Positions 1,468-16,197 of a stretch of 32,000 nt of DNA are shown here, piece after piece. The DNA comes from Candidatus Saccharimonadota bacterium (lineage in GTDB: Bacteria; Bacillota_I; Bacilli_A; Mycoplasmatales; Hepatoplasmataceae): positions 540,001 to 572,000 of the forward strand of contig AP027133.1 in assembly GCA_027925325.1 (NCBI GenBank), in the 5' to 3' direction. Below the pieces are notes generated by a model, which was given only the letters and a program-made list of their open reading frames with translations, was not told where the DNA came from and did no database searches. Position numbers and translations under genes: made by a program. Each line of letters opens with the position of its first letter. Positions within the stretch are counted from its first letter, which is position 1.

Positions 1468-2853
1468 ATGAAAAAATACTATGCTATATTTTTGATTCCA
1501 CTAATTGGCGTTATGCCTATTAATAGAAATATTAGTGAAAAAAATATCTCAGCAGAACAAACTGTAATTACTGATTTTTCAGCAGGCGGGCATCATTCTG
1601 GAATAATTGTTGATACAGATAATGATTATTATGCTGACACTCTTTATATGTGAGGTGATAATGAATATGGAGAAATTGGAAATGGTAAGAATTTTGAAAC
1701 TGTTAGTACACCGCAAATAATAGATTATGATTTTAAAGGTAATTTAATCAATCTTGAGCTTGGAGTAATTCATTCTGGCGTTACAGTTGATTCTGATTAT
1801 GATGGATATGCCGATACCCTTTATATGTGAGGTGATAATGATTTTGGTCAAGTTGGAAATGGTACTAGCGGAGATGAAAATATGTCTGTTTCACCAGAAA
1901 AAATTACTCCTGAAGATCAAGACAATTGAAACGGTAATATCGTTGACTTATCATTATCAGCAATGAATACCTCTGTTAGTATCGATACAGATTATGATGG
2001 ATATGCTGATACCTTATATGTATGAGGATCAGATATGGATGGACAGATTGGAAATGAAAGCATTATAAATGTATTATATCCAACTATAATCACACCAAGT
2101 GAAAAAGATAGTTGAGAAGGTAATATAATTGATGTCTCTTTAGATGGTTATAGTAGCGGCGTTACAATTGATTCTGATTATGATGGATATGCTGATACAT
2201 TGTATATGTGAGGAAGAAATAATTATGGACAGATCGGAAATGATAGTTTTGCCAACACATATTTACCAACGATAATTACTCCTAAAAATCAAACTAATTG
2301 AAGTGGAAATATTATTGATTTTGATTTAGGAACAGAACATGCTGGACTAACAATTGATTCTGATTATGATGGATATGCCGATACCTTGTATATGTGAGGT
2401 GATAATTATTATGGACAATCAGGAAATGGAACCTTTGGACCTGATTATGAATACTTAACTACTCCGCAATTGATAAATTTTAATTTCAATGGAAATATTA
2501 TTGATATCTCTTTAGGTGGAACACATAGTGCTGTAATTACCGATTCAAATTCAGATAACTATGCTGACACTCTATATGTATGAGGAAATAGTTATTTTGG
2601 ACAAGTAGGGGATGGGACTTCAAGAATTACAAATCAAGAAACTCCGCTTATTATCACTCCTAAAGATCAAGATAATTGAAATGGTAATATCTTAAAATTA
2701 TCACTTGGTTTTAATACAACAGGAGTTGTAATTGATCAAAATAATGATAATTTAGGTGATACATTATATATGTGAGGACAAAATTCATTCTATGAATGTG
2801 GAAATCCCAATTTAGAAGTATATTATCCTGAAATCACAATAAATTTTTTATAA
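1468..2853 (+). CDS. secreted or membrane-anchored RCC1-like (regulator of chromosome condensation repeat) seven-bladed beta-propeller protein, 461 aa
   Basis: GGA-rich RBS (AAGAAGGA) upstream. The N-terminus is hydrophobic (MKKYYAIFLIPLIGVMPI). Seven repeats of ~60-65 aa each carry D.D.DGYADTLYMWG.N..GQ.GNG, the RCC1 signature W-G-x-N-x-x-G-Q-x-G. Every repeat Trp is encoded by TGA. Stop TAA at 2851-2853. Confidence 0.85.
1586..2790 (+). repeat. seven intragenic tandem coding repeats (period 179-195 nt) of the RCC1-like gene
   Basis: The core GATTCTGATTATGATGGATATGC[CT]GATAC..T.TATATGTGAGG recurs near 1607, 1786, 1981, 2167, 2353, 2539 and 2731. Copies 2, 4 and 5 are nearly identical at the DNA level. 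Confidence 0.85.
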
Positions 2854-3708: not shown

Positions 3709-5370
3709 ATGAAAGATTTTACTATTAGTAAAGGTTTTTCAATAGATTTGATTGCAAAAGATGATGATTATAAATTAATAAATTTAGGCAAAGAATTTAT
3801 TGAAAAATTAGAAGATGAATACAAAAAATATAAAGATAATTTAAAAAAAGAAATAAAAAAATTTGAAAAATATGCTCAAGATGAAAATGTATATTTCTCA
3901 CAAGAAAAATTATTAAAGAAATCACCATTAACAATTTTAAATGCACCTTGAGGAAGTGGGAAGACATACTTTATTGAATCATTTGCAAAGCATTTTATTG
4001 ATAAGGAAATAAAATTAAAAACCTTTAAAAAAATAATTATATTAGATGTTTGAAAATATTCAAATTCAAAAAAAATTCCAGATGAAATAATTTCAGAATT
4101 ATTTTCCATATTGATTAATAAAACTAGAAAAGAAAAATTAAAAGAAAATTTAAAAAAATTTTCAATTAATTTTTTTATAAATCCTTTTTTAGTATCATGG
4201 GCAAATTATTTTTTAAAAGCTAAAATTAAAGAAATTCAAATAAGCAAAAATGAATTAAACAAACTTGTAAACGATATTTCAAATGATATTGATCATACTT
4301 TAATAATATTTGACAATATTGAAAGAATAGGAAAATATTCTTGAGAAGTGATAAAAGCAATATTCAAAATTTCTCAAATTGACAAATTATGTTTTATTTT
4401 GCCAATGAATATTAATAAATTAAATGATAATGATAAATATATTGAATATCCAATTGAAAAATATATTGATTTGCCAATATTTAATTTCAAGCAAGATTAT
4501 CTATCTTTTTTAAGAAACAAAAATTTAAATGAAGATGAGGCAATTTTAATAAACAAAATATTAAATACTGAAAGAAATGGAGAAAAATTATCAATTAGAA
4601 AAGTAGAACAAAGATTTAGAAGTTTAAATATTTTAAATATAAATGATAAATATGAAAAAATAAAATTTATTTTAAAAAATATTTGACCTGTATATAATGA
4701 AGGAGATGATTATTTTAAAAAAGAAATTTTAGAATATCACTGTTTTTTTAAGGAAAAAAATTATATTTTTGAGGATTTTAAAAATATCATTTTTTCAAAT
4801 GAAGATTTGAAACAAAATAAATTTTTTAAATCAAAATATGAATCTATTAATAAATATTTAGATGATTTAATATTAAATTTAAGATCAGAGAAAATTGATT
4901 TAAAAAAAGACTGATTAGATATTTTTTCTAAAATTTATTCAGAAATAAATGGTATTTGAAAAAAGAATACCTTAACTAAAAATAATTTGGATAAAGAAAT
5001 AAAAGAGAAATTAAAAAAATTAGATATTATTGAAAAACGAGAAAATGAATTAAATTTAAATGACAATGAAAAAATTTTAAAAAATGGAGAAAAAATAAAT
5101 AATATAATTAAAATTAATTTTAATTTGCAGGAATTAAATAATATGATAAATTCATTACCCATTTATAGAAATAAATGATATTTGAGTGAAATAGAACGTT
5201 TAAAAGAATTAAAAAATGATTTTAAAAAATTAGAAAATAAAAATTCAAGTTATACAAATTTAGATATTATTAAAAGTTGGAATTTATTAAATTTTGATAA
5301 TATGTATGAAGATGAAAAAATCGTTAGATTAATAACAAAAAATATGATAGATAATTGAAATAAACAATAA
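3709..5370 (+). CDS. KAP-family P-loop NTPase, 553 aa
   Basis: Four ORF-track fragments (3709, 4111, 4348, 4987) share one frame and are joined by TGA=Trp. Walker A is LNAPWGSGKTYF (GSGKT at 3952-3966; the Trp TGA at 3949-3951 splits the P-loop in the standard-code track). A hydrophobic insert (FSINFFINPFLVSWANYFL) lies between the Walker motifs. Walker B is LIIFDNIER (4300-4326), the KAP-type hhhhDDLDR. The C-terminal half is long and K/N/E-rich. Stop TAA at 5368-5370. Confidence 0.8.
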
Positions 5371-6645: not shown

Positions 6646-8883
6646 CTATATTTTTTTATCTTTTAACTTTTTCTTAATCAAAAAATAACAAATTAAAATT
6701 ATGAAAACAATAAATAAAAAGAATGCTAATGATATTAAAATTATTGCTCAAATCGGAAATAAATTAAGATCATCAGGATAAATTGATTCTAATAAAAAGA
6801 TAATATCATTGTCATTAGAATATTTAATAAATTGATCATTTAATTTTGCAACTGAATCAGGATCGACAGATTGTGGTGAAAAATTTATACTTAAAAAATA
6901 AATCCCACAATATACTTCAAATATTAAATAATAATTATTAAAATCATCAGTAATTTCTGTATCAAAAGTAATTTCATTTTCTTCAATTTGATTTTGATTA
7001 GAAGATAAAGTATAATCAATCTCTTCTATTTCTAATTTAAGATTATCTTTATTATATAAAGATATATCAATAAATCTAGTTAGTTGATATGGATCATAAA
7101 TTTGATAACTTATAGTCAATATATTATTATCAACAGAACTATTTACATCATAAAGTTCCGGAAAGAATTCTCTAAAATCAAGATATTGTGGCTCCCATAT
7201 TTTTTCATCGTCTGAAACTTGAAAGTATAAATTATTTTGATACATTAAATCAAGATTTATATCAATTAAAAAAGAAGTATGACGAGGATAAGCTTGATCG
7301 GTTCATATTATTTCATTACTTGTACCATCTATTAAATTTATTGTATATTCAAAATAATCTTCATCTCGATAATCAATAAATCCTTTTTTTAGATAAAATC
7401 TTACTGAAGTTGTATCATCATTGCTATTTAATTGATAAAGATTACCACCACCGCAAACCATCGTCGGTTTTTCAGGCAAAATTAAACTATAATCTTGTTC
7501 AGATTCAACTTTTCCATAATATCAAATATCTAATAAATCTTCATCACCGGCATTATTTTGATTAATTTGATAAATCATTTCTGTATCATTTGAATATTTC
7601 TTAAGAAAAATAAAATTGACATAGATTGATGGATCAATTAACTCATTTTGATAAAATCCTGAATAATCTAAATTAAGAAAAGTATAAAACGCATCATTCA
7701 CAAATAATAAGCCAACTTCTATTTTCTCCTTCTCATTAATAGCATTCATAATATCAAAATTTAAATTAAATAAATAAATATTTTCCCCATGTATTGTTAC
7801 ACTATTATTAATTGCTGGTAAAATGCTATATGAAGTATAACTTTCAGAATTATTAATATTATCATAGACATTTATGTCATTAAAAATTATTGAGTGAAAA
7901 TAAATATTGGTTCTTAATTGAAAATCAAGATCATAATCATTTATTAAACAACCAATAAATGGATTATAAAATATTCCATAAAAATGATCAGAAGGATTTT
8001 CTAATAAAAAATGATCTTGATTTGAATTCTTAATATTAAATTCATTATTTGCGAAAGTAATATTATTTATATATATTGTGTCAAAAATATTTTCAGGATG
8101 AGCTTCTCAATTACCATGTCATCAATCATCTCCTTGTGTTTGCAATTTTGCAGATCCAATAAGCGAAATAACAGGAGTTACATTTTGATCATATAGATTA
8201 ATTTGATTATCAATAAAATTTATATGATCAAAATATGAAGCAATTCAAATAGAGCCATCAAAATTATTCATTATCAATCCAATTGTTGCAATATTAACCG
8301 TTCAATCATTTAATTTATAAGAAAAACTATCAGAAATATTAGAACTATAAATATTAAAAATTAAATTTTGGTAGGTTGTATTAAAAATATTTACATTATA
8401 AAGAAAAACATGATTTATATTTCCAAAAGGAAACATAAAATTATCAAAATTTAAATCGGCGATTGTAACATCATAAATTTCTTGAAAAAATGAATAATAC
8501 TTTATTCCGTCATGCTCTTCAGTAACATCAAAAGTTGTAGTATCAAAAACTGCTGTTGCATCACGATTATAGAGAGTATATCCATTTCCATCAATAAACA
8601 TATGCTCTAATGATAATCCTGTAATATCATCATTTTCTGAATCTGAAAAGTCAACATTAGATTGTAATTCATAAACGCCATCTTGAGGAACGTTTCTTAA
8701 ATCATCAATAAATTCTTGCGAACTTATCGAATTTTCTTCATATTTTGCGAATTGTTCATCTTCCTCAATTTTAATATTTTCCTCAATATTAATATTTAAA
8801 TCATTATTATTAAACTGACTAAAAAAAAATCCAGTAAATAATGATAAAAATAAACTAAAAACAATTATAATTTTAAATTTCAT
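6646..8883 (-). CDS. surface protein, 745 aa: N-terminal signal peptide, probable beta-helix-like repeat region, C-terminal TM anchor
   Basis: Three ORF-track fragments (6748-7245, 7522-7749, 8302-8883) are in one frame. All gaps were checked and contain only TGA. N-terminus MKFKIIIVFSLFLSLFTGFFFS. It carries an FIDGNGYTLYN motif and many N/I/F-rich ~20-25-aa turns, typical of right-handed beta-helix adhesin-like proteins. The C-terminus WAIILISLAFFLFIVFIILICYFLIKKKLKDKKI is a TM helix plus basic tail. Stop TAG at 6646-6648. Confidence 0.8.
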
Positions 8884-8893
8884 TGCATATAAA

Positions 8894-10753
8894 TTATATA
8901 TAACTAATTTCTAAATTTTCTTTGTCATAATGCTTTATTCCATTTCAAGTATCCTTATTACGATAATGTCAAAATGTTATTCCATTCATAAAATCTTTAT
9001 TAAGATTTAATTTTATCTCATTTGTTAGTTTTTTATCAATAGTATAAAAAACGCCTGAAGATTTTATGAAATTAAATCAATATCTTGAATCTAAATAATT
9101 TTCAATATTTTTTATTTGATCTAATCTATATCCATATTGATAAAAATAATCTCATAAAGAAATTTCTTCATTTTTATTTAAACTATACTTATTTAATTTT
9201 CAACTATAATTTGCTTCCCCATTTAAATATGAAGTAAAAAAATCTCCTGAAGATTTTGGTGAATTAAAAATAATAGAATTTTCTTTTAAATTATTTAATC
9301 TATTTTCTACTAAATCATTAGCCAAATTAAATATTCCTTCTTCAAAATCCTTTGTACCTTTTAAAAATAATTTATAATTTTTGCTTATAGAGCCAAAAAT
9401 CATTTCTCCTATTCCTGAACCAGTCTCAATAAAATCTGATAAAAATGCTGTTCTTTGATTAGATTTTGATTTTTCTAAAATTTCATTAAAAGAAGTAGTT
9501 TTTTGTGGATATTCATTATCAGAAATTACTGCATATGGATTAATATTACAAGTACTAGAAAAATTAGAATTTGGCATACTTTCAAGATAAATATTAGAAT
9601 TATGAGTTGAAGGATTTAATGAAAATGTAAATTTTAAAGATAATGGATATTTTTCTGGATAAGGACTTTTTATATAAATAGGATCATATTGAATTGAATT
9701 ATTACCATTTGTAGTTTCGATTACATAATATTGAAAAGGAGCTAAAAATAATTTATGCTCAAAGATAATATTTTTATCATCCATATATGAATTCGCAGTA
9801 ATTAAAAAATTATGAATATCAATAGGTTCAGTTTTGGCCATTTCTTTATTAGAATAAAATTTTGATACAAAAAATTTTCCTGATTTTGAAATTATAAATC
9901 CATCCTCTTCAATTATCGAAATAACTAAATTATCAGTTTCATTTTTATTAATTGCAAATTTATCAGGATATAATGGCGATTCTAAAATATGAAAACTTAC
10001 AAAATTTACTTCTTTTAAATCATTTATAAATGTATCTTTTACATTTACATCATTTATTATTGTATTATTTGAAAACTTATTTATTGGATAAAGATAAAAA
10101 TCATAATTTAATGGCAATTGATACATTTTTGATTGTGGAGATTCACTTTTATAAATTCCAATAATTCAAATAATGGAATTATTTATTACATCATTTCCAT
10201 ACCTAAAATTTGTTTTGATTTCTTCAATTTTGCTTAAATTTAAATTAAAATCTTCTCTTGTTGATAAATTATTTAAATTATTTCTTTCTAAATGAACTCT
10301 TTCTATCATTGTATAACCATTTAAAATAGTAGAAATTGGATAAGTTGTATAAATATCTAAATTTATAATGATGATAAATTCTTCCTTATTTAATCATTCA
10401 ATTTTTGAAACAAAATAAAATTTAAATAAATTATTTTGATTGATAATAATGTAATTTAAATTGCTAATACGTTCTTTTTTTTGATTAAGATCTTCTTCTA
10501 ATAAATAATCATTAATATTTAATTTTAATTTTGCTTGATAGGTATTATTTATAATTAAATCTTTTTCAATTCAATATCCATTATCTAAATTTTTAAAATC
10601 AAATTGATCATTAAAAATAACATAATTAATAAATTCATCTCGTTTTTTAAATGATTCATCTTTTGATTCTCCTGGAAAATCAATAACATTTTTATTAGAG
10701 ATATTATTTGTATCTCAAAAAATATTGTTTTTTGGTATTAAAATTTTTATCAT
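8894..10753 (-). CDS. Y1: hypothetical protein, 619 aa, paralogue of the Y2 core (no signal peptide or TM)
   Basis: ATG at 10753 is preceded by AGAGGG. The frame is open to TAA at 8894-8896 (codon-checked, TGA=Trp). The N-terminus MIKILIPKNN... and residues ~27-143 are nearly identical to Y2. The C-terminal WKLNKYSLN...LWDYF.QYGY...FWHYRNKDTWNGI block is shared with Y2. Confidence 0.8.
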
Positions 10754-10765
10754 GTTTTCCCTCTT

Positions 10766-13018
10766 CTATTTAATCCTTACTCATTTAGTAGTAAATAGGC
10801 CAGCTGAAATATTATTTTGTTCAGATGAATTTTTTGATGAATATGGAATTAATTTACCAACTTCATGATGTGATTGTCCTATTCTTATTATATTTTCTTC
10901 TAAATCATATCCATCAATATAACCGACAACATCAGAATCATCATTTATTCCTTCTGATTTATTATTACTTCCAACATAAGATTCTGCTAATTTATGTTTA
11001 TGGCATTTAACATTTCCTGAAGAAATAGTATTTAATTGACTTGTAATTGCCTGAATTGTTGTCATTCCTTCAGTAAAATTTTGATTATATTCATGCAATT
11101 TTATTCAAGTTCCCAAATATTTATCATTTAAATTTGGATCATAATTATTTATAAATTCTTTAATCGTTCCAATTACTTCATCTAGCGGATTTTTTTGTAT
11201 AAAATCAATTTCTGCATTTTCCAATTCATAATTATTAATTCCATTTCAAATTCGTTTATTTCGATAATGCCAAAAAAATATTCCACTTGTGAAATCTTTA
11301 TCAATCTTTAATTTAATTTCTTCCGATAAATTTCTATCAACCGATTTAAAAATATCGGTTGCTTTTAAATAATTAAATCAGAATCTTGAATTTAAGTAAT
11401 TTTTGATATTTTCTGTTTTATTTAATTTATAACCATATTTATGAAAATAATCTCATAAAGATTTTTCTTCTTCTATATTCAAACTATATTTATTTAATTT
11501 TCAACTATAAGTTTCATTATTTAATAAATATGAAATAAATAAATCTCCATTTATTTTACTTGAATTATCATATTTAAGATTATTCATATATTTTGAAATT
11601 TTACGTTTTTCTAATACGTTTGCTATTTGTGGAAATTTTTTTTTATTAAGCATTTGTGAATAAGCTTCTGATTTAGCATCTTTTAAAACATTTAGATATG
11701 ATATTGTTCTCTTTGGATATTCATTATCTTTTATTATTGAGTATTGATTAATATTTCAATTTGGATCGATTTCAATTTGACTTGAGAATTTTTCAAAATA
11801 AATACTACTTGTGTGAATTAAAGGATTTAAAGAAAAATTAAATCTTAAATGATCTTTACGTAATGCATTATTCCATCCTAATTGTAAAGGATCATAATCA
11901 ATTGAAGATTCACCATTAGTTGTTTCAATTTTATAAACTTGATAAGGAGCTAAATATAGTTTATGCTCAAAAATTACATTTTTATAAGATAAATATGAAT
12001 TAGATTGAAGTGAAAAATCATGAATAGATATTCCATCACTTCATCCCATTTCCCTATCTAAATCAAATCTTTTAATAAATAATTTTCCTCCTCTTAATTC
12101 AAAATTATTTTCATCTATATTTGATAGGGTGATAATAAAATCTGAATTAGAATCACTTGAGTTAACTCTCTTAATATTAATTGCATTAGGATATAGCGGT
12201 GATTCTAAAAGATAAAATCCGACAAATTTATCTTCTGTTTCTCCTCCACTAGTTAAACCAGTATCATTAAATAAAGCATTTTTTGTTTCAATATCATTTA
12301 TCATAATTTTTATGCTATCACCATTTTCTTGACCATTGGTTTTATAAATTGGATAAAGATAGTAATCATAATTTAATGGTAATGTCCCAATTTTTGTTGT
12401 CGGTGTTTCTTCTTTACATAATCCAATTATCCATATAATTGAATTACTAATTATGTTATCGCCGTATTTAAAATCAACAGGAATTTTTTCCACTTTGCTT
12501 AATTCAAAAGAAAAATCTTCTCTTATTTGTAATTTATCTAAATCTGTTCTTTTTAAATGAGCTCGATCAATCATTGCATCACCATCTAAAATAGTAGAAA
12601 TAGGATAAGTTGTATAAATATCTAAATTTATCATAATGATAAATTCTTCGTTATTTAATCATTCAATTTTTGAGACAAAATAAAATTTAAATGAATTATT
12701 TTGATTGATAATGATGTAATTTAGATTGCTAATACGTTCTTGTTTTTGATTAAAATCTTCTTCTAATAGGTAATCATTAATATTTAATTTCAATGTTGCT
12801 TGATAGGTATTATTTATAATTAAATCTTTTTCAATTCAATATCCATTATCTAAATTTTTAAAATCAAATTGATCATCAAAAATAACATAATTAATAAATT
12901 CATCTCGTTTTTTTAATGATTCATCTTTTGATTCTCCTGGAAAACTTATCGCATGTTTTTCTATATTATCATCTGAAAATCAATAAGCATTGTTTTTAGG
13001 AATTAAAATTTTTACCAT
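10766..13018 (-). CDS. Y2-X': hypothetical protein, 750 aa; Y-family core fused in frame to a second copy of the X C-terminal domain
   Basis: ATG at 13018. ORF-track fragments 12041-12634 and 10781-11098 are in the same frame. I checked every codon in 11099-12040 and 12635-13018 and found no TAA/TAG. The Y-type C-terminal block ends ...FWHYRNKRIWNGINNYELENAEIDFI. It continues QKNPLDEVIGTIKEFINNYDPN...AGLFTTKWVRIK, which is homologous to X residues ~75-209. Stop TAG at 10766-10768. Confidence 0.75.
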
Positions 13019-13020
13019 TA

Positions 13021-13650
13021 TTATTTAATCCTTACTCATTTAACGGTAAATAATCCGGCTGCAAAATTATTTTGTTCAGATGAATTTTTTAATGAATATG
13101 GAATTAATTTACCAACTTCATCATGCGATTGTCCTATTCTTACTATGTTTCCTTCTGAATCATAACCATCGATATAACCGACAACATCAGAATCATCATT
13201 TGTCCCTTCAGATTTATCATTACTTCCAACATATGCTTCTGCTAATTTATGCGTATGACCCTTAACACTTCCTGAAGAAATAGTATTTGCCTCATTTGTA
13301 ACTATTTGAATTGTTGTCATTCCTTCAATAAAATTTTGATTATATTCATGCAATTTTACTCAAGTTCCTAAATATTTATCATTAATATTTGGATCATAAT
13401 CATTTATAAATTCCTTAATTGTTCCGATTGCTTCATCAATTAAAAAAATTTCTTCTGATAAAATGATGTATTTATGATTATCTTTTGAAATTAAGATCTC
13501 TTTATTTGCTTTATTTAATTTTAAAAAATATTCTAATTTATGATTTGTTAATTTAAAAATTGAATTAACGTCATCGTTTTTTACATTCTTAATTTCTCAA
13601 TCCGAAAGTAAGAAAGATTGTTTATTTTGATAATTAATTTTAATCTTCAT
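13021..13650 (-). CDS. X: hypothetical protein, 209 aa, with a conserved His/Glu-rich C-terminal domain (HxHKLAE...GQSHxEVGKLIPYS)
   Basis: ATG at 13650 lies 9 nt after AAGGAG (13663-13668 on the reverse strand). The frame is open with TGA=Trp. It ends ...AGLFTVKWVRIK, TAA at 13021-13023, 2 nt before the Y2 start. The ORF-track fragment 13036-13353 is its C-terminal part. Confidence 0.8.
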
Positions 13651-15020: not shown

Positions 15021-15096
15021 TGGTGGTTCAGGACGGAATCGAACCGCCGACACAGGGATCTTCAATCCCTTGCTCTACCGACTGAGCTACTGAACC
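15021..15096 (-). tRNA. tRNA-Phe (GAA)
   Basis: Reverse complement GGTTCAGTAGCTCAGTCGGTAGAGCAAGGGATTGAAGATCCCT...GGTTCGATTCC...CTGAACCACCA. Anticodon loop TTGAAGA. CCA encoded. Confidence 0.95.
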
Positions 15097-15106
15097 TAAA
15101 AACAAC

Positions 15107-15182
15107 TGGCGGTCCTGACGGGATTTGAACCCGCGATCTCCTCTGTGACAGAGAGGCATGATGACCACTTCACTACAGGACC
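15107..15182 (-). tRNA. tRNA-Asp (GUC)
   Basis: Reverse complement GGTCCTGTAGTGAAGTGG...CCTCTCTGTCACAGAGG...GGTTCAAATCC...CAGGACCGCCA. Anticodon GTC. Confidence 0.95.
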
Positions 15183-15183
15183 T

Positions 15184-15260
<77 letters not shown>

Positions 15261-15268
15261 ATAAATAA

Positions 15269-15361
15269 TGGTGGAGATGGAGGGATTCGAACCCCCGCAC
15301 GACTTGCGCCGTCTCTCGGTTTTCAAGACCGATCCCTTCAACCAGACTTGGGTACATCTCC
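15269..15361 (-). tRNA. tRNA-Ser (UGA), long variable arm
   Basis: Reverse complement GGAGATGTACCCAAGTCTGGTTGAAGGGATCGGTCTTGAAAACCGA + variable arm + GGTTCGAATCC...CTCCACCA. Anticodon TGA. Length 93 nt. Confidence 0.95.
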
Positions 15362-15369
15362 ATTTGATG

Positions 15370-15446
15370 TGGTGGTCCGTGCTGGACTTGAACCAGCGAC
15401 CAACCGGTTATGAGCCGGTGGCTCTAACCAACTGAGCTAACGGACC
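15370..15446 (-). tRNA. tRNA with CAU anticodon, probably tRNA-Ile2 (lysidine-modified)
   Basis: Reverse complement GGTCCGTTAGCTCAGTTGGTTAGAGCCACCGGCTCATAACCGGT...GGTTCAAGTCC...GGACCACCA. It is called Ile rather than Met only from its position in the conserved Met-Ile-Ser-fMet order. Confidence 0.7.
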
Positions 15447-15452
15447 AAATAT

Positions 15453-15529
15453 TGGTAGCGGAAGAGGGACTTGAACCCCCGACCCATTGAATATGAACCA
15501 ATTGCTCTAACCAACTGAGCTATTCCGCC
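15453..15529 (-). tRNA. elongator tRNA-Met (CAU)
   Basis: Reverse complement GGCGGAATAGCTCAGTTGGTTAGAGCAATTGGTTCATATTCAAT...GGTTCAAGTCC...CCGCTACCA. Anticodon CAT. Confidence 0.8.
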
Positions 15530-15535
15530 TTATAA

Positions 15536-15611
15536 TGGTGGAGCGAACGAGATTCGAACTCGCGACCCCATGCGTGCAAAGCATGTGCTCTACCAACTGA
15601 GCTATCACCCC
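15536..15611 (-). tRNA. tRNA-Ala (UGC)
   Basis: Reverse complement GGGGTGATAGCTCAGTTGGTAGAGCACATGCTTTGCACGCATG...GTTCGAATC...CGCTCCACCA. G3:U70 pair present. Anticodon TGC. Confidence 0.95.
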
Positions 15612-15614
15612 ACA

Positions 15615-15691
15615 TGGTCGGAAAGACAAGACTTGAACTTGCGACCCCTGCGTCCCAAACGCAGTGCTCTGCCAAACTGAGCTACTTTCCG
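15615..15691 (-). tRNA. tRNA-Pro (UGG)
   Basis: Reverse complement CGGAAAGTAGCTCAGTTTGGCAGAGCACTGCGTTTGGGACGCAG...GTTCAAGTC...TTTCCGACCA. Anticodon TGG. Confidence 0.95.
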
Positions 15692-15696
15692 ATATT

Positions 15697-15773
15697 TGGC
15701 GCGCCTGATAGGAGTCGAACCCACAACCCTCTGATCCGTAGTCAGATACTCTATCCAGTTGAGCTACAGGCGC
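15697..15773 (-). tRNA. tRNA-Arg (ACG)
   Basis: Reverse complement GCGCCTGTAGCTCAACTGGATAGAGTATCTGACTACGGATCAGA...GGTTCGACTCC...CAGGCGCGCCA. Anticodon ACG. Confidence 0.95.
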
Positions 15774-15791
15774 CTTTATATAAAATAAAAT

Positions 15792-15876
15792 TGGTGCGGG
15801 TGAAGGGACTTGAACCCTTACGTCCGAAGACACTAGATCCTAAGTCTAGCGTGTCTGCCAATTCCACCACACCCGC
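15792..15876 (-). tRNA. tRNA-Leu (UAG), long variable arm
   Basis: Reverse complement GCGGGTGTGGTGGAATTGGCAGACACGCTAGACTTAGGATCTAG + variable arm + GGTTCAAGTCC...CACCCGCACCA. Anticodon TAG. Confidence 0.95.
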
Positions 15877-15880
15877 AAAT

Positions 15881-15956
15881 TGGTGCCGTCGATAGGAATC
15901 GAACCTACGACCCACTGATTACAAGTCAGTTGCTCTGCCTGCTGAGCTACAACGGC
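15881..15956 (-). tRNA. tRNA-Thr (UGU)
   Basis: Reverse complement GCCGTTGTAGCTCAGCAGGCAGAGCAACTGACTTGTAATCAGT...GGTTCGATTCC...GACGGCACCA. Anticodon TGT. Confidence 0.95.
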
Positions 15957-15959
15957 TAA

Positions 15960-16035
15960 TGGTGGGGCATATAGGACTTGAACCTATGACCTCCTGCTTG
16001 TAAGGCAGATGCTCTCCCAACTGAGCTAATACCCC
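15960..16035 (-). tRNA. tRNA-Val (UAC)
   Basis: Reverse complement GGGGTATTAGCTCAGTTGGGAGAGCATCTGCCTTACAAGCAGA...GGTTCAAGTCC...TGCCCCACCA. Anticodon TAC. Confidence 0.95.
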
Positions 16036-16042
16036 AAAATAT

Positions 16043-16118
16043 TGGTGACCCATACGGGATTTGAACCCGTGCATGCTAGGATGAAAACCTAGTGTGTTAA
16101 CCTCTTCACCAATGGGCC
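16043..16118 (-). tRNA. tRNA-Glu (UUC)
   Basis: Reverse complement GGCCCATTGGTGAAGAGGTTAACACACTAGGTTTTCATCCTAG...GGTTCAAATCC...ATGGGTCACCA. Anticodon TTC. Confidence 0.95.
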
Positions 16119-16122
16119 TAAA

Positions 16123-16197
16123 TGGCGCTCCGGAGAGGATTCGAACCTCCGACCAACTGGTTAACAGCCAGCTGCTCTACCACTGAGCTACCAGAGC
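16123..16197 (-). tRNA. tRNA-Asn (GUU)
   Basis: Reverse complement GCTCTGGTAGCTCAGTGGTAGAGCAGCTGGCTGTTAACCAGT...GGTTCGAATCC...CGGAGCGCCA. Anticodon GTT. It is first in the transcription order of the cluster. Confidence 0.95.

Follow-up and report, generated by a model that had tools for sequence, protein, structure and literature searches.

In 'Candidatus Hepatoplasma scabrum' Ps-JP, a bacterium that lives as a symbiont in the gut glands of the woodlouse Porcellio scaber (AP027133.1; PMC10928387, Table 2), two adjacent paralogous genes, here called Y1 and Y2, are nearly identical over one part of their length and strongly diverged over much of the rest, which raises the question of what these genes are and how such a mosaic came about. 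They lie within a window of 32,000 nucleotides (nt; contig positions 540,001 to 572,000, with all coordinates below given relative to the window) in a genome that is a single contig of 606,194 bp. Both are on the reverse (-) strand, Y1 at 8894-10753 (619 amino acids, aa) and Y2 at 10766-13018 (750 aa). They require genetic code 4, because table 11 splits both into pieces; at a window GC content of about 20% the open reading frames (ORFs) are short and fragmented under table 11 and long under code 4, where TGA is read as tryptophan (W). Y1 is a tail knob paralogue of the phage phi29 gp9 type that retains a full-length channel (L) loop, and in Y2 a knob paralogue (residues 1-607) is fused in frame to a 139-aa X domain. 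Ordinary evolutionary processes explain the mosaic; what is unusual is the object on which they act, a phage tail knob that has been domesticated and duplicated. The combination that we consider probable is an old duplication of a captured phi29-type knob gene, domain-specific rates of evolution, specialisation of the two copies and recent gene conversion.

In a BLASTP alignment Y1 and Y2 match over their full length at 53% identity, and sliding windows bear out the uneven divergence reported in a preliminary description of this DNA. Residues 1-26 are 50% identical (50-57% in sliding windows), residues 27-143 are 93% identical (109/117, with the eight differences counted earlier), the centre falls to 30-48%, the loop region within it to about 25-30% with an indel of about 30 residues, and the last 120 or so knob residues realign, as had been claimed, at 58-67%. 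The conserved islands named earlier within the centre are all present in the BLASTP alignment. To call the centre "barely alignable" was an overstatement, because the proteins align end to end, and the wording holds at the loop indel. At the DNA level, positions 10385-10680 and 12650-12945 are 95.3% identical (14 differences in 296 nt); the near-identity described earlier therefore stands, with a second range that had been begun 10 nt too early, at 12640, the true offset being 2265 nt. The full near-identical tract covers nt 75-432 in both genes, that is 10322-10679 (-) in Y1 (residues 25-144) and 12587-12944 (-) in Y2, with 16 differences in 358 nt (95.5% identity). Its flanks are only 68% and 70% identical, and the difference in density (85 differences in 274 flanking nt vs. 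16 in 358) is highly significant (Fisher p=5e-20).

Y1 and Y2 are full-length homologues of the phi29 gp9 tail knob. Both match phrog_2248 ("tail protein"; E 5.4e-11 for Y1 and 8.9e-12 for Y2), and the only PDB sequence match is to the phi29 tail knob gp9, or "distal tube protein" (5FB4, E 7.4e-7 with Y2), besides a weaker collinear N-terminal match. Searched against the ORFs of the genome, phi29 gp9 finds two, at E 7.5e-8 and 1.4e-5, the latter being Y1. Precomputed annotation records PF20934 (phi29_gp9_C) in Y2 and in three Y1 orthologues; direct Pfam scans of Y1, Y2 and the two genes clustered with them, X and M, gave no meaningful match at E<=1. An AlphaFold2 model of Y2, with a predicted local distance difference test (pLDDT) of 80-95 over residues 1-410 and 500-600, has 5FB5 as its best Foldseek match (E 6e-24), and a VIA comparison with gp9 superimposes 452 residues (model 1-604 on gp9 7-599) with Z 19.5 and a root-mean-square deviation of 4.0. 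The next matches, likewise over the whole chain, are the knobs of phages Andhra (gp12, 8EGS; Z 17.1) and C1 (gp12, 4EO2; Z 15.4). An earlier impression, that the N-terminus recalls tail-tip proteins of Gram-positive phages, is borne out by these sequence and fold matches.

A profile search collected 400 relatives, mostly of about 600 aa. Viral contigs, 5-19 kb long and for the most part 11-19 kb, carry 27 of the relatives, another belongs to the cultured Clostridium picovirus LPCPA6, and the best relatives outside Hepatoplasma are 24-29% identical. Scans of viral contigs with a Hepatoplasma-only alignment and with one of the outside relatives (P0012) gave no match, nor did a scan of genome contigs with the latter. 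A FastTree phylogeny of 40 members of the family unites every Hepatoplasma copy in a single clade (support 1.0), whose sisters are uncultured sequences on small contigs. This monophyly indicates a single capture of a knob gene by a Hepatoplasma ancestor, followed by duplication.

Domains were mapped by aligning gp9 with the family and by applying the domain scheme of Andhra gp12 (PMC9710869), from which the domain names are taken; that scheme (N-terminal beta-sandwich, tip domain, channel loop 393-500, C-terminal domain) maps onto the mosaic. Residues 27-143 correspond to gp9 30-122, a tube-like beta-sandwich at the N-terminus; in known knobs this part makes up the top ring, touches the tail stem and provides the attachment (PMC9710869, PMC6542822). 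The tip domain occupies residues 226-325 in Y1 (9779-10078, -; about gp9 216-317) and is 33% identical to Y2, where its equivalent comprises approximately residues 226-344 (11987-12343, -). The channel loop follows at residues 426-496 in Y1 (9266-9478, -; gp9 L loop 417-491), with 71 aa, amphipathic and 27% charged, and is represented in Y2 by a basic, glycine-free and hydrophilic remnant of 40 aa (residues 445-484; 11567-11686, -). The C-terminal knob domain takes up residues 501-619 of Y1 (8897-9253, -), which match phrog_2248 and gp9 515-596, and approximately residues 489-607 of Y2 (11198-11554, -). The earlier notion of a conserved attachment end with a variable centre is thus correct as architecture. 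The reading as a tail fibre or classical receptor-binding protein is not, since the knob part is predicted from the model to have a tube-subunit fold. A trimeric fibre or spike with a variable distal C-terminus was likewise considered and rejected, given this fold, the central position of the variable parts and the conservation of the C-terminal knob domain.

What made the N-terminal domains alike is a recent gene conversion of about 360 bp, restricted to H. scabrum. Over residues 27-143 the two paralogues have an identity of 0.93 in H. scabrum vs. 0.75, 0.64, 0.65 and 0.60 in four other genomes or contigs, and identity between Y1 and Y2 of different species is 0.61-0.73. The synonymous difference (pS) is 0.13 in the tract vs. 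0.34-0.46 in other segments of the H. scabrum pair. A tree of these residues places H. scabrum Y1 and Y2 together with support 100, whereas the other species still separate Y1 from Y2. A Sawyer-type test, of the kind that the preliminary description had proposed, was positive, with 33 concordant variable sites in a row and no run of that length in 2000 permutations (p<0.0005); no other pair among the six genes has a comparable run. The genome carries recA (E 1.9e-112). A core of the tract at 10531-10679 (nt 75-223) has only 2 differences in 149 nt (98.7% identity, 1.3% divergence), and the remainder has 14 in 209 (6.7% divergence; p=0.018), which suggests that the tract probably records two nested conversion events. 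The proposal that both ends are homogenised by conversion accordingly survives for the N-terminal segment in H. scabrum; the C-terminal block is conserved and not converted, because its tree follows orthology. Nor is N-terminal homogenisation a standing property of the family, the segment being just 60-75% identical between the paralogues elsewhere.

Strong purifying selection alone, or an assembly artefact, might also leave two genes nearly identical over one segment. In every species the N-terminal domain ranks with the better conserved parts, and the sequence comes from an Illumina-only metagenome-assembled genome (MAG) at about 20x coverage (PMC10928387). Both candidates were rejected and are very improbable: selection alone fits neither the homogenised synonymous sites nor the low identity of the segment in the other genomes, the incongruent tree is at odds with either, and the tract keeps 16 differences and sharp borders, neither of which a collapsed repeat would yield. 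Gene conversion, by comparison, has a familiar form. The duplicated tufA and tufB genes of Salmonella evolve in concert by RecA-dependent gene conversion. As in that system, a short tract of Y1 and Y2 has been homogenised, synonymous sites included, so that the paralogues cluster by species for the tract only; unlike tufA and tufB, conversion here is partial, confined to one species and to one structural domain of strongly diverged paralogues.

The duplication that gave rise to the two knobs is probably older than the split between H. scabrum and H. crinochetorum, as far as trees and gene order can tell. Y1 and Y2 belong to a compact cluster, X-Y2-Y1-M, with intergenic gaps of 2, 12 and 10 nt, placed between ychF and a tRNA cluster. 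X (13021-13650, -; 209 aa) consists of a 70-residue N-terminal part and an X domain (13024-13440) and marks the start of a 2.26-kb tandem repeat; M (6646-8883, -; 745 aa) begins 10 nt downstream of Y1. The order M-Y1-Y2-X beside ychF recurs in the genome of H. crinochetorum Av (G002; 657,101 bp) and in a further genome, G003, so that synteny of the cluster has been kept since before the species split. Proteins of both types also occur in H. crinochetorum Tokyo2021 and on a 7-kb contig. Altogether both copies are intact in five genomes or contigs and a sixth contig has Y1 only, with lengths of 619-636 residues for Y1 and 746-751 for Y2. Protein, profile, phrog_2248 and P0012 queries found no knob in genome G001. 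Y1 and Y2 form separate clades with support of 92-100 in trees of residues 144-619 (support 100), 226-500 and 501-619.

The fusion in Y2 may have arisen in the same step. A distance of 2265 nt separates the starts of Y1 and Y2, each of which is preceded by a homologous X-domain end, an arrangement that would be explained by one tandem duplication of a 2.26-kb "X domain plus knob" unit. The putative break-points of such an event would lie where the X domain of X begins and where the knob gene ends on its 3' side, and the event would account for the second knob as well as for the fusion of knob and X in one frame. The X domain of Y2 (residues 612-750; 10769-11185, -) is 82% identical in aa and 88% in nt to the C-terminus of X, and has a conserved HxH motif that is invariant in the domain. 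In H. scabrum the 88% nt identity between X and the Y2 tail goes with a pS of 0.25, compared with 74-78% and 0.39-0.43 in two other genomes, and the tree pairs H. scabrum X with its own Y2 tail. Together these point to an exchange of sequence between X and Y2 in this lineage, a second and weaker conversion tract. The X domain had no Pfam match and no PDB profile match, and AlphaFold2 models of it, within Y2 or alone, were unusable (pLDDT 30-36). X has no match in cultured phages or in the 27 knob-carrying viral contigs, and no relative of near length was found outside the genus. In an ESM Atlas feature search, 27 of 30 matches of the X domain fell in clusters of Gp10_C (PF21939, the C-terminal domain of T4 baseplate gp10, a trimeric head domain of the gp10/gp12 type) with a score of 0.91, which we take as a lead only.

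A further paralogue of M, of 734 aa and 65% identical to the M of the same genome, is present in G003 (L014:10447-12892). Just upstream of it lies a pseudogene fragment of a knob C-terminus with two TAA stops, and the two together indicate that a knob-M unit was duplicated once more and has since decayed in part.

The centres of Y1 and Y2 differ most clearly in the loop. In phi29 the L loop of gp9 is hydrophobic, exits the tube and forms a membrane channel (PMC6542822). Across 32 phage relatives used for comparison, loops are 61-76 residues long, with a charged fraction of 0.06-0.20 and a Gly/Ala/Ser fraction of 0.26-0.50. All Y1 loops have 70-71 residues, a phage-like length, and both their charged fraction (0.26-0.30) and their Gly/Ala/Ser fraction (0.21-0.23) lie outside the phage range. 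All Y2 loops are short (40-44 residues), basic and glycine-free, with a charged fraction of 0.35-0.48, and occur together with the C-terminal X domain. Measured against the 32 phage loops, neither Y1 nor Y2 has a long, hydrophobic, Gly/Ala/Ser-rich loop of the pore type; Y1 may have kept partial activity. Each type of centre, that of Y1 as well as that of Y2, is conserved across species, and what separates the two is therefore for the most part an old and fixed specialisation and not the work of a shuffling cassette.

Variation among orthologues is another matter, and here the preliminary description, which anticipated allelic variation of the centre among related strains, was correct. The genomes of H. 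crinochetorum Av and Tokyo2021 are 98.4% identical in nucleotide sequence overall (PMC10928387, Table 3). Their X proteins are 99% identical (L013:10015-10653 vs. P0161), as against just 75.5% for Y1 (P0005 vs. P0008) and 80.9% for Y2 (L013:7746-9992 vs. P0010). The lowest windows, at 0.36-0.65, fall in the tip domain and the loop, and the tip-domain equivalent is the most variable part of Y2 between these strains. The knob locus is therefore a strain-level hot spot of divergence. Ratios of nonsynonymous to synonymous change (dN/dS) between species are 0.29-0.57 for Y1, Y2 and X and about 0.6 for M, compared with 0.13-0.28 for ychF and trkA; they are crude, and inflated because at this base composition synonymous sites approach saturation. 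Between G002 and G003 dN/dS is below 1 in every Y segment for which it can be estimated, synonymous changes being too few in the first 26 residues of Y1, and it is highest in the loop (0.70-0.75).

One possible explanation for these patterns is that the centre is a diversifying target-recognition region, in which new specificities drive the tip domain and loop and the ends are held constant for assembly. It would fit the facts that these two parts are the least conserved in every comparison, that dN/dS peaks in the loop, and that strains so close over the genome differ so much in Y1 and Y2 and so little in X. Even so, the crude dN/dS between orthologues stays below 1 throughout; the difference between Y1-type and Y2-type centres is mostly old, each being conserved across species; the fold is that of a tube subunit and not of a fibre; and a strain divergence of 20-25% fits replacement of alleles by recombination equally well as positive selection. 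We consider this explanation rather unlikely; it could add to the one preferred here instead of replacing it.

The preferred account, then, is one in which an ancestral Hepatoplasma captured a phi29-type knob gene and its descendants kept the X-Y2-Y1-M cluster, with three processes shaping the mosaic. Rates typical of knobs constrained the N-terminal ring domain and the C-terminal domain and let the tip domain and channel loop evolve fast. Specialisation before the species split gave Y1 its amphipathic 70-residue loop and Y2 a short, basic, glycine-free loop together with the X domain. Finally, a recent conversion of the RecA type, of about 360 bp and in H. scabrum only, overwrote the N-terminal domain.

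Do these genes still have a function? A search (phmmer --max) with 24 proteins of phi29 and LPCPA6 against all code-4 ORFs found matches of knob proteins only (E 7.5e-8 to 2.1e-3, all others E>=0.02); LPCPA6 gp18 and gp17 each match Y1 and Y2. Pfam searches of the whole genome likewise returned no portal, packaging ATPase or protein-primed polymerase, and weigh little, because the same search missed Y1 and Y2 with phrog_2248, to which the translated proteins score at about E 1e-11. The failure to detect any other phage gene would suit a decaying phage remnant without present function, shaped by neutral drift and accidental recombination, as would the degenerate state of both loops and the knob pseudogene fragment in one strain. 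Such a remnant is improbable, because both genes are intact in five genomes or contigs, and Y1 in a sixth, in organisms with genomes of just 606-657 kb. It is also hard to reconcile with dN/dS of 0.29-0.57 overall and 0.08-0.12 in some segments, and with synteny kept since before the species split.

If the knobs are functional, their arrangement may be guessed from phi29, in which the gp9 hexamer assembles as a trimer of dimers (PMC6542822). By analogy, Y1 and Y2 would co-assemble as a mixed ring with three copies of each, which would explain why identical ring-forming N-terminal domains are tolerated and maybe even of benefit. In this ring, Y1 would supply the remainder of a membrane-active loop, and the three X domains brought in by Y2 might form a single trimeric head. 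M, with its hydrophobic N-terminus and C-terminal hydrophobic anchor (both recognised by inspection), is probably a membrane-anchored surface protein. It is kept in the cluster in three genomes and is its fastest-evolving member (44-45% identity to orthologues), with no family assignment. As to the purpose of the ring, the leading guesses are a device made by the cell for contact, together with the surface protein M, and interference with infecting phi29-like phages, and we hold them about equally likely. A fuller picture, which we put forward as quite tentative, is of a Y1/Y2 hetero-hexamer as a cellular machine whose ring domain is kept matched by conversion, with a remodelled and membrane-active Y1 loop, three X domains on Y2 that resemble a fibre tip and exposed parts swapped rapidly between strains, and which, working with M, would block phi29-like phages or contact other membranes.

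One form of such interference would be dominant-negative decoys, knob subunits with crippled channel loops and an attachment domain still compatible with phages, that join the tails of infecting phi29-like phages and render the progeny non-infectious. Conserved ring and attachment domains combined with loops that both lie outside all 32 phage loops would be expected of such subunits, the fast yet constrained evolution and strong strain divergence resemble an arms race, and other defence genes, CRISPR and restriction systems, are present in the genome (PMC10928387). No export signal was seen in Y1, Y2 or X, which is consistent with action inside the cell. On the other hand, no Hepatoplasma phage with a close knob was found, outside relatives being so distant, and decoys would leave the linked surface protein M and the X domain unexplained. 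The proposal is wholly inferential, and we regard it as doubtful.

Several points weigh against the account of a captured knob retained as a mixed ring. Neither loop resembles, in its sequence, one that works in membrane insertion. The mixed ring, the arrangement that we favour, is drawn by analogy. The missing export signal makes it hard to see by what route a ring would reach its target. Other phage genes are lacking as far as a phmmer screen with proteins of two phages, and family searches of low sensitivity, can tell. With respect to the conversion, the diagnostic sites in the tract are mixed as to its direction, and H. scabrum is represented by a single genome, an unpolished MAG.

Compared with phi29 gp9 itself (5FB4, 5FB5, 5FEI; PF20934; phrog_2248), Y1 and Y2 are of the same length class, share the fold from end to end and the collinear order of parts, and remain recognisably similar in sequence over the C-terminal 100 residues. 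They differ in being chromosomal, with no portal, collar, capsid, polymerase or packaging gene detected in a limited screen, in being tandemly duplicated, in a loop that is recharged in Y1 and truncated in Y2, and in the extra C-terminal domain of Y2. The knobs of Andhra and C1 are, in contrast, virion proteins that form homo-hexamers. In Astrithrvirus-like and other small phi29-like phages the knob is spread over two polypeptides, possibly with extra domains (PMC11476376); unlike the two full-length paralogues described here, these split-knob phages, including LPCPA6 with gp18 and gp17, have the N- and C-terminal halves as separate genes.

The genes around the cluster in the window are housekeeping genes (such as ychF, 14 tRNA genes, trkA/trkH, ligA and sodA) or lack a family match. 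The tRNA cluster (15021-16197, -) comprises these 14 genes, including three for tRNA-Met(CAT), and stands out as a peak of 50% GC in a 20% GC genome. Directly upstream of ychF is a gene (3709-5370, +) whose 553-aa product contains a GSGKT motif resembling a P-loop and has no Pfam match. The 461-aa product of another, at 1468-2853 (+), has beta-propeller repeats of the RCC1 kind (Pfam E 1e-55); proteins with such repeats have been discussed as candidate host-interaction proteins (PMC10928387). A scan for promoters and terminators returned 76 sites vs. 85 expected and is uninformative at 20% GC.

When the first Hepatoplasma genome was published, phage genes were reported to be undetectable in it (PMC3942034); the comparative study of 2024 makes no mention of the genes described here (PMC10928387), and a literature search found no paper joining a tail knob with Mollicutes. 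New in the present analysis are the conversion tracts specific to H. scabrum, the single-duplication model for the fusion and the comparison of loops with those of 32 phage knobs. A genome of about 600 kb is evidently able to keep a piece of phage injection machinery in a duplicated, specialised, partly homogenised and strain-variable form. If the mixed ring is true, it would be an example from nature of a phage part that turned from homo-oligomer into hetero-oligomer after duplication, and would offer a handle on how wall-less symbionts meet small phages or host membranes.

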